Shown one piece after another: positions 25,021 through 31,905 of a stretch of DNA of 64,000 nt; position 1 is the stretch's first letter, and each line of letters begins with the position of its first letter. The notes beneath the pieces are model-generated. The model made no database searches and was not told the DNA's origin. It saw only the letters and a list, made by a program, of their open reading frames with translations. Source of the stretch: a virus (lineage: Duplodnaviria > Caudoviricetes); the IMG/VR virus record IMGVR_UViG_3300028624_000003, positions 156,983-220,982 of that record. One strand, 5' to 3'. Both the position numbers and the translations under genes were made by a program.

Positions 25021-25359
25021 ATGTATAGAAACAGAATAGTACGCAGGTACCCGAGTACATATTTTCGAGGTTATGTATTCGCAGGCGATGACATGGCGTG
25101 CAATTGTGAGATAAAGAAAACGAATTCACGGGTTTTCGTATACTCTCTTTATACTGAGGAGAAGTATAGACGACAAGGGTGTGCCACTAGACTTCTCAAT
25201 TACATCATGTCGTATTTCAAAAATTGTGACATGATCCTTCAAGTATACGAAACCAATCATGGAGCTCGTGCGCTGTATGACAAACTAGGATTCGTTGAAC
25301 TGGATTATCAGTTGGACCAGTATGGCGAGAAGGTATTCAGACTACTCAAGCTAGCATAA
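25021..25359 (+). CDS. GNAT N-acetyltransferase
   Basis: YRRQGCATRLL; LQVYETNHGARALYDKLGF. Confidence 0.85.
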   Translation: MYRNRIVRRYPSTYFRGYVFAGDDMACNCEIKKTNSRVFVYSLYTEEKYRRQGCATRLLNYIMSYFKNCDMILQVYETNHGARALYDKLGFVELDYQLDQYGEKVFRLLKLA

Positions 25360-25959: not shown

Positions 25960-28900
25960 ATGTTCGAAGATATCATCAGTGCAGGAGAAGAGCGGTTGAT
26001 GTTCAATGCGTTCTTCCGTAAGCATTTCGCATTTCGTCAGGGTGATTTGGCTCCTGTATTCAAGCCACTTCCCTCGGATATCGTCCTTCCTGCTGGAAGC
26101 CTGATTCACGTCGTGGACAACATGTACAGCAGAGACAACAGCCTTCCGTTGTCGGATGCACCCAATATGAGAATTCCTCTCATAGCCAACGATACCTACA
26201 GAAAGTTTGTACATCACCGTATTGCAATCGACACTGATGGACCCGTCAAGATAGACGAGAAGTATGTGTTCCGCACACAGAATCTCGCACAAAACCTGAA
26301 GCAATTCCGAAGCTGGACGACCAAGCAAAAGAATTTGCGTGTAGTAGAGAATCTGAAAGATCTTCCTGCTACAAAAACTACGTTAGCGATCATAAACCAC
26401 AACCCACTGTTTCGTACAGTAGTTCGTGGTATGCTTCCTAACTATCGTCAGTTCAAGATCATCTTTTCTTCGATTCTGAACACTGCGGCAAAATGCCCTA
26501 GCGACCGTACCCAGTACATCGTCATTCCTTTATCGAAGCAGATGTACAACCGCAGTGACTTCTTCCTTGCAAAGAAACAAGAAACTCCATCCGCAATCAA
26601 GTCGAAGAATAGCTACCACTATTTCTTCATGATGCACTGGTTGAACTTCCTCGACGTCGCAACAGACCTTTCACTCTTTGAGAGTTATCCTGAAGATCGT
26701 TGGGGAAACACGGTGATTGTGTTCACCTACGGTGTCGATGAGATGAAGTATGCCATGTTCTGGACTCTTCATGACGCAATTGCACTCAATCAACAGAACC
26801 GTGGATACAACAAGATCGTCAATCAGCTCAATGCGTTCGTACTGACAAACATGGGCGTTGAGCTTGAGAACACTGACAACGAACTTCAAGTCGAAGGCAA
26901 ACTTGCAGAAGTTGTCGACAAGGGTCAAGTAGTTAGCGATACTCCAGATACTGAAGTTGTCGCTATGGGACCGAAAGACGATCAAGAAACAGAACTGAGT
27001 GACGATCCTCAAGATATCGAAGAAGATGTTGCACTCAGTGAAAAGATCAAAGCTATGTTCAGTGATCTCACGAATGTGAAAGCACTGGACCCAGAAATAG
27101 CTCCGATCAAAATGGGCGGACTTGCGTACGCTGAGGGAGAAGAAGATACTCCTATTCGGTATACGAAACCTACGAAAACCGAGGGTAAGAGCAACCCTAC
27201 AGAGACGGAGAATAATCCCGATTTCGCACAAGAAAAACCCGAACAAATGAGGGTTATATCTGACGAAATCGAAGAAGACGCGGAAACTCAGGAAGTAGGA
27301 GTACTATCGAAGATAACTCCTGTAACAACTCCTGAACAGATATCGGAAATGGGTAAAGCCCATCTTCAAGAGATCGACGAAAAGGTGGAAGAGCTTCTTC
27401 GTAAAGATCCTAATCTCACACCGAAAGCAAAAGAACGTCTGCTCAGGATCTCTGCGAATTCCAAACAGGTTAAACTCAATGGGAAAACTATTGAGGAACA
27501 CCTCACAGAATCAGTGGATCCTACTCTCACGAGTCACACGCTCGATCACTTGGCTGATCAATTGGCAGATCCTTCGATGGCTAATGCCAGTATTCAGTCA
27601 TTCGACCAGCTTTACATGGAGAAATTCTACCATCGTGATTTGGCTGCAGTTGCTGTGGGACTGAACAGTCACGGAATGTTTCTCACTGGAATCGAAGAGG
27701 TAGTACAGTCCGACGAACTGAACCGTCTTGTACACTACAAAATGAAATTTGTAGACAAGAATGGCAAATCGCACAAGTTGCAGTTCAGTCTTCCTCAAGT
27801 AGACAAGAACGGCAATTGTCTGATCAATGGTGTGGAGTGCAAGCTTCGTAAACAGATGACCAACCTCCCGATTTGCAAAGTATCTCCTACCAGAGTATCT
27901 CTTGCCTCGTCATTCAACAAGACGGTAGTAGAAAGGAATCTGGCAAAAGCTCACAGCTTCCTGCCTTACTTCCAGAAGCTCATGTCCATGGCTGCCAAAA
28001 ATAAAGAAGGTAGCGAAACAGGAGCGGCTCTGACCGAGGTAGATTACGGGAGTGTGAAGATCAATGATCGAATCTCCACGGAGTATGCTGACATTGCTAC
28101 GCTCTACAAGAGCTTTACACTAGTCTGCAAGAATTCTGATACGTATCGGTTCGTACTGGATGTGAATGCGTACAGAACCGAAGTATACCAATTCTCAGGG
28201 CAGAGTAATGTATACTCCGAGAAGAATATCACGACACTCGCTGAGAAATACGGTACCCCTTTCGGGCTGTGCAAGATCGACGGTGAAAAATACCTACTGT
28301 TCATCCGTGCTAACAACATCGTGACGATGATTAGCTGCAAAGCGGTGAACGTGAAAGGATTGACCAGCAAAGATATCGTAGCGCACAGAACGACGATTAT
28401 CGACATGTTCTCCGCAATCATTGGGAAGCCATCGACAAGACTGACTGAATGGACAGATATCAAGATTCTCGACAAGAAATTCCCAGTAGGGTTCTTGCTC
28501 TGTTTCCAGTTTGGTCTGAAGCATATACTCGACTATCTTGGCGTGCGGTACAGACGCACCGGAGTCCGCAGTCGACAAAGTCTGCGCGCAAGTGACATTG
28601 TCATTCCTTTCAAGGACGAAGCACTGATCATTCCGAGATACCCTCTCCGGAACTCACTGATCGTCACCGGATTGACGATGTTCAATACGAAGAAGTACAT
28701 GTTCGAAGACTTCAATGAGAAAAACGTGTACTACGAACTCTTGACCGATAAGGGCTTCAAGACCAACTATCTCAAGGGCATCGAAGATACTTTCAAGTAC
28801 TTCGTAGACCACAAAACAAAAGAGACCTTGATTCAGATGGGTGAACCCGCCACATTCAAGGATCTCCTCATTCGTGCTACCGATATGCTTTGTACTCCGA

Positions 28901-29391
28901 GACATCTCGAGTCGTCCGCTATCGGCAACCACAGACTCAGATCTTACGAACGCTTCAACATGATTGTCTACAACGAAGTCATGCGCGAACACGCTAACTT
29001 CTCCCGTCGGCAAGGTGCTGGAGCTACTTTCAGTATCAACCCGAATGCAGTACTGCAGAGACTCTTACAGGACCAAGCAATGATCGGTATTGAAAATATC
29101 AATCCGATCCAGGAAAGCAAGATCAATTGCAGTTTCACCTATACTGGTGCAGGCGGTCGTACGTCGCAAGCATTCGTGACAGAAGACCGCAGATATCCCA
29201 GTGACGGCATGGGTGTCATATCGGAAGCCACTCCTGACTCAGGTAGTGTCGCTATCAACGCAGTAGCTCCTCCAGATCCTACGATAGCGAACATCTACGG
29301 ATTGGTCGATCCTAAGCCAGTAGGAGAACTGGAGCCTGCTCAGATACTGAGTACTCCTGCACTCTTACTTCCTGGCGTGACACAGGACGAT
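25960..29391 (+). CDS. Virion RNA polymerase beta subunit (phiKZ gp178-like), exon 1
   Basis: RKQMTNLPICKVSPTRVSLASSFNK, RLRSYERF, TYTGAGGR, GVISEATPDSG; ends PGVTQDD. Confidence 0.9.
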
Positions 29392-29423
29392 CGAAGATAG
29401 ACTTGAACTAGAGTAAAAATAAC

Positions 29424-29440
29424 CCTCCATTGTATGGAGG
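29424..29440 (+). promoter_or_regulatory. RBS-sequestering hairpin with an embedded late promoter
   Basis: CCTCCAT-TGT-ATGGAGG masks SD GGAGG; ATTGTATG at 29429-29436. Confidence 0.7.
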
Positions 29441-29448
29441 ACAAACTC

Positions 29449-30453
29449 ATGTTCATAAACAAAGATTTCCCAGGATTTTTCAATATTCCAGGTTTCTCAC
29501 AATACGTCATTTCCCCTGACGGTAAGGTAATCAATACCACAACAGGAGAAATGTTAAAAGGTAGCACTAATCCCGCAGGGTATCATCACTATCGGTTAAA
29601 ATCAGACTCAGGAAAGATAAAAACTATCGGTCGCCATCGGTTGATGTGTATGACATTCGTACAAAGGGATGAATGGGATTCCCTTGTCGTAAATCATATC
29701 AACGGAGTGAAAGGTGACGATCGTCTGGTTAATCTGGAATGGGCTACATACACCGAAAATGCTGAGCATGCAGGAAGAATGGGACTGACCTCAAAGTGCT
29801 GTCCAGTTGATGTGAAAAGTTTGGATACGGGAGAAATCCTCAAATTCCCAAGTGCAAAAAAGTGTGCGGAGTATTTTGGTTTGAGTAAGGACGCAGTACT
29901 GTACAGGCTAAAGCAGCCATCCAGTCGTGTGTATCCTGAAAGAATGCAGTACCGCATAAGCGCAAACGAACCCTGGCCTGACCCGGAAAACATCGAAAGT
30001 GCTGTGCTCGAAAATGGTCGAGCTAGGTCAATTCTACTTAGAGATGTGTGGACAAAAGAAATCCGTTGGTTTCCAAAACTCAGCGGATTGGCGAGATACT
30101 TAAACGTCTCTCCCGCCACCATTACTAAGTGGATCAATTTACCTAACAATCCAGTACTTCCGGGCGGCATACAGCTGAAACTAGCAGCTGATTGTACTCC
30201 TTGGGTAGAGTACGACGATCCTTACTTGGAAATGTCCAAATTTTCAGGTACTCGATACGTCGAAGTATTCGATTCGTTCACAGGAACTAACCGAATATAC
30301 TCTTCACTCAAAGAGTGTGCACAGGATCGCAATCTCGCGATGTCTGTTGCACATTACAGGGTTAAGACCAATGGGAGATCTTTGTTTTCTGACGGATGTT
30401 ACTACGGGTATTACCCGCTAAAACATCCGGGTCTATCAGGTCCTACCAAATAG
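29449..30453 (+). CDS. Intron-encoded HNH homing endonuclease (NUMOD4-like + HNH + repeated NUMOD1-like HTH)
   Basis: IPGFSQYVISPDGKV...HRL; VVNHINGVKGDDRLVNLEWATYTEN; FPSAKKCAEYFG, FPKLSGLARYLN, YSSLKECA. Confidence 0.9.
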   Translation: MFINKDFPGFFNIPGFSQYVISPDGKVINTTTGEMLKGSTNPAGYHHYRLKSDSGKIKTIGRHRLMCMTFVQRDEWDSLVVNHINGVKGDDRLVNLEWATYTENAEHAGRMGLTSKCCPVDVKSLDTGEILKFPSAKKCAEYFGLSKDAVLYRLKQPSSRVYPERMQYRISANEPWPDPENIESAVLENGRARSILLRDVWTKEIRWFPKLSGLARYLNVSPATITKWINLPNNPVLPGGIQLKLAADCTPWVEYDDPYLEMSKFSGTRYVEVFDSFTGTNRIYSSLKECAQDRNLAMSVAHYRVKTNGRSLFSDGCYYGYYPLKHPGLSGPTK

Positions 30454-30753
30454 CAATATTTGGATAGAACTCCCCTTAATTGCTGGAACACCCTTAGAGC
30501 CATTCTACCACAACGTAAGGATGAAATATACCTAAGCGTGATGGTTTGAAAAACGAATGGATTGGGCAATCAGCAGCCAAGCTCCGAATAGGAGAAGGTT
30601 CAACGACTAAGGCCTTGTCAGCCTGTACGGATCAAGTGATCCGGAAAAAGGGGACACCCTACTAGGGTGAAGATATAGTCTCGTCTTTAGTGAAAGCTAA
30701 AGCTGCAGGTAATGCTGCGGGTACTATCTAACGAATAGTATCGAAGATTAACG

Positions 30754-31905
30754 CCGAAGAGAGCTAACTTTGTATCCATTCAGCTGGCTCACCAGCTTCC
30801 GACGAAAGAAGGCGAGTGTATGCGTACTCGTACAGGATACGAGAGAGTCGTAGCTCAAAGAGCGTCTACTTATTACGCATACTCTGCATCACAAGACGGT
30901 AAGGTCATTGAAGTAGACGAAGCTCTCGGGCTTTGTAAAGTGAAGTACAAAGACGGTACAGTTCAGGTCATCGAATTCGGTGAGAAGTACGGAGAGTGTG
31001 CGGACATGGTCACCACACTCAAGTTGCAGCTTACAGTAAAAGTAGGTGATTCATTCAAGAAAGGTGACGTGCTCTCGTATAATCCCGAGTACTTCGAGTT
31101 TGACCCTATCGCAAGACAGGCAGATTGGAAACACGGAGTAATCGCTACTGTGGCGTTGATGGACTGCGGTCCTACTTTCGAAGACAGTAACTCCATCACG
31201 AAGGAACTTGGTGAAAAGCTGGAAATCCAGCCAATCGAGATCCGACAAATCGCCATAACAGCGGACACTGTAATCCATGCGCACAAGAGCGTGGGCGATG
31301 AGGTCGATGTCACCGACTACCTCATGATCTTCGAAGACTCCGAAGCGGCCGACTTGACCGGTATGTCACAAGACGCGGATGCTTTGGAGTATCTCGCTAA
31401 ACTGAACAGAAAAACACCCAAAGCAAAGTGCACTGGAACAATAGCGAAGATCGAAGCATTTTACGCTGCGCCAATAAGCGAAATGCATTCGAGTGTAGCT
31501 AAGTTCGTACGAGATGTCACCAAGAAAAACATGCAGAAACACAAGTACTCGCAGGGTACTATTTCGGGTATGGATTTCCCTGAATCTAAGCCACTTCCAG
31601 TGGGAACAAAATTCAAGGGAGTGACATTCGAGAAAGACACGGTACTTTTCCGCTTCTTCATCCAAGAAAGAATTGGTTGCGGAGTGGGCGACAAGATCGT
31701 GTTTGACTCGTCTCTGAAATCTGTCACTGGTAAGATTCACGAAGATATCAATACTGAGAGCGGTCTCAAGATAGATGCCGTATTCAGCGGCTCATCGATA
31801 TCTAACCGAATCGTGAACTCGCCCATCATCATGGGCATGGCAGAACGGATTCTGGAGACTCTGGAACAGCAGGCAATTGACATCTACTTCGACAAGTCCA
31901 AATAA
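30754..31905 (+). CDS. Virion RNA polymerase beta subunit, exon 2 (spliced product about 1527 aa)
   Basis: PKRANFVSIQ...RTGYE, TFEDS, GVGDKIVF..LKSV, IDAVF...SI.NRIV. Confidence 0.9.
   Translation, partial: PKRANFVSIQLAHQLPTKEGECMRTRTGYERVVAQRASTYYAYSASQDGKVIEVDEALGLCKVKYKDGTVQVIEFGEKYGECADMVTTLKLQLTVKVGDSFKKGDVLSYNPEYFEFDPIARQADWKHGVIATVALMDCGPTFEDSNSITKELGEKLEIQPIEIRQIAITADTVIHAHKSVGDEVDVTDYLMIFEDSEAADLTGMSQDADALEYLAKLNRKTPKAKCTGTIAKIEAFYAAPISEMHSSVAKFVRDVTKKNMQKHKYSQGTISGMDFPESKPLPVGTKFKGVTFEKDTVLFRFFIQERIGCGVGDKIVFDSSLKSVTGKIHEDINTESGLKIDAVFSGSSISNRIVNSPIIMGMAERILETLEQQAIDIYFDKSK

Follow-up and report, generated by a model that had tools for sequence, protein, structure and literature searches.

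We analyzed a stretch of 64,000 nucleotides (nt), referred to here as the window, from the complete 220,982-base virus record IMGVR_UViG_3300028624_000003 (positions 156,983–220,982; 47% GC). It contains the gene of a virion RNA polymerase (RNAP) β subunit, which is interrupted by a group I intron with an open reading frame (ORF) for an HNH endonuclease (Table 1). The ORF upstream of the intron (25960–29400) and the frame that begins at 30754 match consecutive stretches of one PHROG profile (3148, RNA polymerase beta), and the spliced product would consist of 1527 amino acids. The insertion site is DD|PKR, with U29391 just before the intron and G30753 as its terminal base. Among the relatives found, L006 is the closest (80% identity around the insertion); it lacks the intron and reads PGATQDD-PKRANF uninterrupted, and phiKZ gp178 reads HDD-PKR at the same site. 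On unspliced RNA, translation of exon 1 ends at an in-frame TAG (29398–29400) within the 5′ strand of the P1 extension. A preliminary description of the locus had proposed these borders and an in-frame junction; both match the sequence, the continuity of the profile and the RNA joint described below.

The analysis confirms the intron, its splice sites and its long-range P1 helix. Because the element is orthologous to the gp210 intron already published for PhiPA3, it is known in kind; its site is likewise known. We read it as very probably a functional, mobile IA2-type intron that belongs to the gp210 family and resides in a divergent jumbo phage, itself a probable nucleus former, and this estimate includes the steps of splicing, HNH expression and mobility proposed below.

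Table 1. Features of the interrupted virion RNAP β gene and its intron, in window coordinates.
Feature	Position	Strand	Remarks
Exon 1, virion RNAP β subunit gene (phiKZ gp178/PhiPA3 gp211 homologue)	25960..29391	+	1144 codons, the last two Asp-Asp; phrog_3148 positions 2-1050, E 1e-143
P1 5′ strand at splice site (GAT|C)	29389..29392	+	U29391 pairs with G30440
Group I intron, IA2 type, 1362 nt	29392..30753	+	RF00028 match, RNA joint, alignment to relatives
P1 extension, 5′ strand	29396..29405	+	pairs with 30428-30437; contains TAG 29398-29400
Hairpin burying the Shine-Dalgarno sequence	29424..29440	+	29424-29430 with 29434-29440; hides GGAGG 29436-29440
Late-promoter-like motif ATnnTATG	29429..29436	+	predicted +1 at G29436 (start is a prediction); transcript would lack the arm opposite the Shine-Dalgarno sequence
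HNH endonuclease ORF, 334 amino acids	29449..30453	+	NUMOD4, HNH_3, NUMOD1 repeats; I-HmuI type; His83 codon 29695-29697
P1 extension, 3′ strand	30428..30437	+	lies within final HNH codons
Internal guide sequence GGTC	30439..30442	+	wobble G30440 located 13 nt before P2 GNRA loop, as in T4 td
P2, GCAA loop	30446..30463	+	HNH stop codon 30451-30453 overlaps P2
Core	30471..30680	+	P3 30471-77/30648-54; P4 30481-86/30570-75; P5 and extension 30491-30566; P6/P6a 30576-99
Core, continued	30471..30680	+	P7 30605-09/30676-80; P7.1 30610-24; GUA link 30625-27; P7.2 30629-42; P8 30655-69
3′ domain	30681..30753	+	P9.0 30683-84/30751-52; P9 30685-30702; P9.1 30703-20; P9.2 from 30721; terminal G30753
Exon 2, virion RNAP β gene (PhiPA3 gp209 homologue)	30754..31905	+	383 codons, the first Pro-Lys-Arg; phrog_3148 positions 1051-1421

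The exons are ligated in RNA at 29391/30754. This exact joint, expected in RNA from the preliminary description, is present in contigs of two activated-sludge metatranscriptomes (RNA runs X2 and X3). The X2 contig has a depth of 10.3 and 29 letters on the shorter side of the joint; the X3 contig has a depth of 3.8 and 186 letters on that side, with 0 mismatches over 394 nt. X2 additionally holds an unspliced contig that spans the 5′ junction, and contigs internal to the intron are also found in the RNA data. The position of the joint is ambiguous by one base, but only 29391/30754 gives both a U before the intron and a terminal G. These data are contigs from samples other than that of DNA run X1, from which the window may derive, and strand, start and level cannot be read from them. 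An X3 contig that starts at 29442, near the predicted RNA start, was set aside since contigs cannot reveal RNA starts, and differences in depth between exons and intron were not taken to reflect expression. Of runs X1–X20, the evidence comes from X1, X2, X3 and X11.

Because RNA libraries can contain DNA, and X2 and X3 are not the samples of X1, the joint might instead derive from an intronless DNA allele, with the intron itself either dead in splicing or an artefact of assembly. However, no joint was found in X1, where the 5′ junction is crossed unspliced and the depth of the intron equals that of the exons (49–50), and a second DNA run (X11) has the intron too. All core helices are intact, most of them covary, and the interrupted gene encodes a virion polymerase subunit, which phiKZ needs. 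We regard an origin of the joint from DNA as very improbable.

The X11 run contains a sister strain, ∼98% identical in exon 1, with the same intron devoid of the ORF. Positions 29402–30438 are replaced by 17 bases, while the core is almost unchanged, and the same six pairs (GATAGA with TCTATC) now close a local hairpin. Pseudomonas phage HPP-Temi also has an ORF-less intron at this site. Three synonymous differences from the window (30756, 30759 and 30760) fall within the initial 7 nt of the sister's exon 2, and only one within the next ∼940 nt; the start of its exon 2 is identical to that of Serratia phage 2050HW and of L012, and may represent a short co-conversion tract.

Rfam detects one group I core in the window (RF00028, 30402–30702, 90.8 bits, E 6e-22). 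The core lies downstream of the ORF and folds from the final 315 nt of the intron. In an alignment with 11 relatives, most core helices pair with several pair types, and the paired cells amount to 66/66 for P4, 33/33 for P6, 55/55 for P7, 67/77 for P3 and 61/66 for P8. P7.1 (44/44) and P7.2 (41/50), likewise with several pair types, are linked by GUA, in agreement with the description of subgroup IA2 as having P7.1 and P7.2 between P7 and P3, joined by G-U-A (PMC3428280). The 3′ domain can be aligned with that of T4 td. P4, in contrast, is unlike td in sequence, and P5 carries a branched extension of ∼70 nt common to the family. The assignment to IA2, which was also the subgroup given earlier, is made by the GUA link and the likeness to td; P4 and P5 may or may not be among the features that define the subgroup. 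The 3′ splice site is fixed by P9.0, which is paired in 17/17 introns through five dinucleotide combinations. P9.2 was taken from a single-sequence fold, its alignment counts being poor (22/73), probably from misalignment. A P10 pairing with the 3′ exon, which many introns can do without, was rejected by a family test, where cognate partners were no better than non-cognate ones (p 0.94); the likeness of the first intron bases to the start of exon 2 is confined to this window.

The 5′ splice site is presented by a P1 helix whose two strands are ∼1 kb apart, as had been proposed together with its U-G wobble. The guide GGTC pairs with GAT|C, which includes the U29391–G30440 wobble, and is joined by an extension of 10 base pairs, two of them G-U. 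For the window alone the extension has a predicted energy of −14.4 kcal/mol, matched by 4/2000 shuffles, and is the best partner within the intron; the runner-up is so near (−12.8 kcal/mol) that comparative evidence has to decide. In 20 introns at the same site, the first bases pair with the segment preceding their own internal guide sequence (IGS) at −10.4 kcal/mol on average, compared to −4.8 kcal/mol with the segments of other members. The own partner ranks first in 10/20 loci and among the top three in 18/20, and the cognate pairing was matched in 0/100,000 permutations, values that are not independent probabilities as the 20 loci are related. Exon 1 ends in GAT and the guide reads (G/A)GTC in the 20 relatives, and the first intron base pairs with the base preceding the wobble G in all of them; the U-G pair is present in the ORF-less sister as well. 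A spacing of 13 nt separates the wobble G from the P2 GNRA loop in the window, in T4 td and in 18/20 relatives (9/11 of those with a single candidate G). The exon contributes only three pairs to P1, and 17/20 relatives end in GAT GAT, which provides two equivalent registers. The extension would then have two roles, to keep P1 closed and to determine its register. Splicing three bases further upstream at the 5′ site would remove one Asp in frame; this register was rejected because the RNA joints show only 29391/30754.

Since the extension covaries across relatives and closes a local hairpin in the ORF-less sister, the HNH ORF is placed in L1. It is looped out there for most of its length, as claimed at the outset; its last eight codons and stop, however, fall on the 3′ strand of P1, the IGS and P2, so that the ORF is not wholly within L1. 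This overlap, together with an in-frame ATG upstream at 29434, raises the possibility that the HNH is translated from the precursor or the excised intron and that ribosomes passing through the IGS switch the RNA between endonuclease production and splicing; in T4, unregulated translation of I-TevI lowers td splicing (PMC2988022). Across relatives, the ORF runs past the wobble G in 11/19 and ends before it in 8/19, with the stop between −22 and +43 relative to that base. The relatives do not conserve the read-through into the IGS, and the overlap is best read as drift of the stop codon, along the lines of the "core creep" idea (PMC3073962), rather than as a designed switch. Moreover, the Shine-Dalgarno sequence (SD) is predicted to be buried on long RNAs in 16/20 relatives, a promoter motif stands at a fixed place after the anti-SD arm, and the genome has a gene for a nuclear shell. 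A switch of this kind seems unlikely to us. The earlier suggestion that translation and splicing are mutually exclusive would hold per molecule, for a ribosome that reaches 30428–30453, but the SD hairpin with its late-promoter-like motif seems to keep such conflicts rare.

The leader of the intron points to another mode of expression. It is predicted to fold at −10.1 kcal/mol with an SD pairing probability of 1.00, and in the 16 relatives mentioned the predicted pairing of the SD is ≥0.7 (mean z −2.2). The overlying ATnnTATG precedes 9.3% of the genes in this genome, compared to 0.4% of random windows. In the leaders of the 20 introns it occurs exactly in 8 (0.6 expected) and with at most one mismatch in 18 (7.5 expected), mostly 42–51 nt from the splice site and directly after the anti-SD arm. 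Bare TATG was discarded as an informative motif in favor of ATnnTATG, as its enrichment before genes is weak (22% versus 15%). Late transcripts of phiKZ begin at the G of TATG (PMC4666361), and I-TevI of T4 has an SD hairpin and a late promoter, where deletion of the hairpin lowers td splicing (PMC2988022). As the conserved hairpin and the promoter motif across it repeat the arrangement of T4 I-TevI, the probable source of the HNH is a short RNA of its own that is unable to splice, with the precursor kept free of initiating ribosomes. The ATG at 29434 was rejected as the start of the ORF: it overlaps the SD, relatives start 57–79 nt into the intron, and the database protein has 334 residues. 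In the first 30 intron nt of two other loci (L014 and L017) the leader is short and without ATnnTATG, the HNH starts 27 nt in, and the start region can be covered by a local hairpin of the 5′ P1 strand.

The endonuclease matches the NUMOD4, HNH_3 and NUMOD1 profiles. Among cultured phages, it is matched best by the Serratia 2050HW group (46%) and PhiPA3 gp210 (41% identity over 92%, E 3e-71), and ∼120 more homologues were found. In viral contigs, an alignment as query gave matches where the single HNH as query gave nothing. Full-length homologues of at least 34% identity with flanking sequence are located at the same site. According to Birkholz et al. (Science 2024, PMC11620839), the gp210 intron is placed right after the same two Asp codons, in line with the comparison of insertion sites that had been suggested; gp210 nicks intronless PhiPA3 and phiKZ alleles, phiKZ suffers a 3.7-fold cost in co-infection, and mutation of His82 of gp210 abolishes nicking. 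His83 of the window protein aligns with this residue, and nicking activity can be inferred here from gp210.

An alternative is that the intron still splices but that its HNH no longer homes, which would make the element a passenger in decay, heading for the ORF-less form found in the sister. ORF-less versions do exist, in the ∼98% identical strain and in HPP-Temi, and the window protein has Asp where I-HmuI has the middle Asn of its motif. The ORF is nonetheless intact and of full length, and the HNH motif residues, this Asp included, are invariant in four family members, among them gp210, which nicks DNA with the same Asp. The SD and the promoter motif are also intact, and intron-internal RNA contigs exist. 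Decay is improbable in our view.

The preliminary description also regarded the element as mobile and aimed at the DD/PKR site, and the comparisons favor this. The HNH is 35–48% identical to those at the same loci whose flanking polymerase sequences are 27–36% identical, and the ratio of HNH to exon distance is 0.84 for pairs that involve the window, compared to 1.44 for others. Two loci (L010 and L013) pair with 100/100 support on the exon tree, a grouping rejected on the HNH tree (p-AU 0.0009), although this group was picked after the trees were seen. Closer HNH than polymerase sequences, the conflict between trees and the intronless nearest relative together point to a horizontal gain of the element. 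The donor is not placeable: a quick HNH tree has one well-supported fork and leaves the window HNH unplaced.

L006, with 75% polymerase identity, matches the spliced junction at 44/60 nt, and neither a group I intron nor an HNH homologue was found in its 200 kb (the record is 73% complete). Its site is a plausible target of the HNH since it is nearer to that of the window than the phiKZ site is to PhiPA3 (31/60). A role of the element as an inter-phage weapon, raised at the outset, is plausible by orthology with gp210, which imposes its cost on phiKZ (PMC11620839). Whether the element is kept for this purpose, as a competitive weapon against co-infecting intronless phages in addition to selfish homing, is a further question. 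The closer match of the L006 site speaks for it, but co-infection of the window phage and L006, in a host that the two might share, is an assumption, and a near-identical strain that has lost the ORF, or never had it, points to a benefit neither strong nor constant. We hold such maintenance to be a serious but tentative possibility, one that adds to homing and does not replace it.

In phiKZ-like phages, the cassette in L1 (promoter hairpin, HNH gene and its share of P1) might even be a mobile unit of its own, joining and leaving ribozymes without change to the core and pairing with various cores at the same site; the weapon would then be gained and shed separately from the intron. The sister differs from the window in L1 and hardly in the core, homologous same-site HNHs are found on cores with different P4 types, and the window core is closer to that of a second intron in the same genome (78%) than to those of same-site introns (52–74%). 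We consider an independent cassette somewhat doubtful, and with the sequences at hand its gain and its loss are both possible directions. Another same-site intron (L025:3496-4572) is 2152 nt long, with ∼750 extra nt inside or after the core besides an HNH in L1.

The closest known system is the PhiPA3 gp211/gp210/gp209 intron, which shares the gene, the site, the ORF in L1, the long-range P1 and the SD hairpin. Its ORF also reads through, with the stop 23 nt past the wobble G, and its core is 65–71% identical to that of the window. The L1 layout, offered earlier as a distinguishing point, is thus not one, and it recurs in the phiKZ gp55 intron. PhiPA3 is, however, a distant host phage, with a polymerase 36% identical around the site. 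Nicking and competition are shown for PhiPA3, whereas the splice joint is seen for the window in RNA contigs. Serratia phage 2050HW, Vibrio phage C-ZP2022, HPP-Temi and 15+ metagenomic phages have the same site, U-G register and P9.0, as well as a homologous L1 HNH where one is present; Serratia phage Haymo and Pectobacterium phage ParM-25 were seen as BLAST matches only, with the same scores as 2050HW. The P1 extensions of same-site introns are unrelated in sequence yet covary, and several introns have another P4 type. C-ZP2022 (L003:4402-5840) combines a homologous HNH with a different ribozyme that has no P2, six exon pairs in P1 and a weak extension.

In phiKZ, the gp55/gp56/gp56.1 and gp71/gp72/gp73 introns give spliced fusions (bioRxiv 10.64898/2026.09.21.753271). 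The gp55 intron has a core 72% similar to that of the window, an L1 of 1021 nt that holds gp56, a P1 extension and the wobble G at 13 nt; in the gp71 and gp180 introns the ORF precedes the core, as in the window. The gp55 and gp71 introns differ in their location at other sites, in non-virion polymerase genes, and the gp55 leader is short, without an SD hairpin. The window phage itself has a second intron of the same ORF-in-L1 layout in its non-virion RNAP (nvRNAP) β′ gene. There, two introns that each carry an HNH ORF flank an exon of 9 nt and split the NADFDGD motif as NA|DFD|GD (L088:929-1832 and L089:14331-17800; genome 114330-117800, beyond the window). The first of these has its ORF in L1 and an SD hairpin, and its core is 78–82% identical to the window core, above any same-site intron.

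The T4 introns in td (with I-TevI), nrdB and nrdD share P7.1-GUA-P7.2, a similar 3′ domain, the 13-nt spacing between wobble G and P2 loop, an SD hairpin with a late promoter, and an ORF that overlaps intron structure (PMC2988022, PMC3073962). In td, by contrast, the ORF is of the GIY-YIG type and starts at intron nt 133, after P6, the P4 sequence is another one and P5 has no extension. ORFs inside the U-G pair of P1 are known from the Porphyra S1506 "P1-extension" (PMC2585584) and the Bacillus cereus AH1134 recA intron (PMC2504315), and size variants of the Porphyra intron self-splice in vitro (PMC2585584). These introns are not from phages and belong to other subgroups, with other endonuclease families (His-Cys box and unknown, respectively). 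No description of jumbo-phage introns with an L1 ORF was found in the literature searched, most subscription journals being outside its reach. The nicking HNH enzyme I-HmuI of phage SPO1 (PDB 1U3E) shares the N-terminal order NUMOD4-HNH-NUMOD1 (E 5e-9, residues 13-155), but has 174 amino acids compared to 334, without the extra helix-turn-helix/NUMOD1 repeats of the window HNH.

The phage probably builds a nucleus. A divergent chimallin (L089:12476-14239, genome 112475-114238) is encoded upstream of nvRNAP β′, as in phiKZ. Its model (pLDDT 88) matches Goslar chimallin in Foldseek (E 4e-15, TM 0.60, 12% identity), and it heads a family of more than 300 clusters at 50% identity, although it was missed by PHROGs, tblastn and the PDB sequence search. 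Sequence searches had returned neither chimallin nor PicA nor PhuZ, which suggested a phage without a nucleus; this reading was given up in view of the fold match. Since the genome encodes this chimallin, late splicing may occur away from ribosomes.

In the mechanism that we propose, the ribozyme would fold from the final 315 nt, the 3′ splice site would be chosen by P9.0 together with the terminal G, and the exons would be joined. As only three exon pairs are available, the extension would be needed to close P1 across ∼1 kb and to set U29391–G30440. The RNA contigs support this step, while its chemistry is taken from group I introns. On the precursor and the excised intron, the ribosome-binding site would be locked in the hairpin, which would keep P1, the IGS and P2 free of ribosomes. 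The HNH would be translated from a short late RNA begun at G29436, with neither the 5′ splice site nor the anti-SD arm, and late transcription within the phage nucleus would further separate splicing from translation. This step is modelled on the conserved sequence and on T4. The HNH would then nick intronless alleles near the Asp-Asp codons, leading to homing in a close relative; in a relative too divergent for repair, an essential gene may be damaged.

Several points weigh against this reading. The splicing chemistry is modelled on other group I introns, the RNA start is a prediction and nicking is ascribed from gp210; there is also a small probability that the joint in the RNA runs stems from intronless DNA with exons of the same sequence. 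A competing P1 register (AGGAC with GUCCU, 29384–29388 with 30440–30444, with a C-G at the cut) is predicted to be 1.8 kcal/mol more stable. The kinship of the 20 loci and the late choice of the tree group temper the comparative tests. Exact ATnnTATG occurs in only the 8/20 relatives noted above, and the PhiPA3 version has one mismatch. PicA and PhuZ have no PHROG or tblastn match in the genome, in searches that also missed chimallin.

Two neighboring genes deserve mention. A small ORF resembling GNAT acetyltransferases (window 25021–25359) lies between baseplate/tail genes and the polymerase gene. Just before the window, on the minus strand, is a PurZ-like gene (L092:1034-2266), whose best NCBIfam match is PurZ with 216 bits (cut-off 300). 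If the phage DNA holds 2-aminoadenine, this would be relevant to the range of sites open to HNH recognition.

The annotation of the locus is corrected to a single polymerase subunit of 1527 amino acids instead of two genes. The PhiPA3 study calls the intron "putative" in the text searched, where no reverse-transcription PCR, promoter or RNA structure analysis was found; here, the exact splice joint of a relative is present in environmental RNA, and the family provides a structure backed by covariation with the ORF in L1. The conserved unit of hairpin and promoter predicts how enzymes of the gp210 type would be expressed, which can be checked in PhiPA3. Given hosts, the natural trio of an ORF-containing intron, an ORF-less sister and an intronless relative would permit a comparison of homing, immunity and interference.

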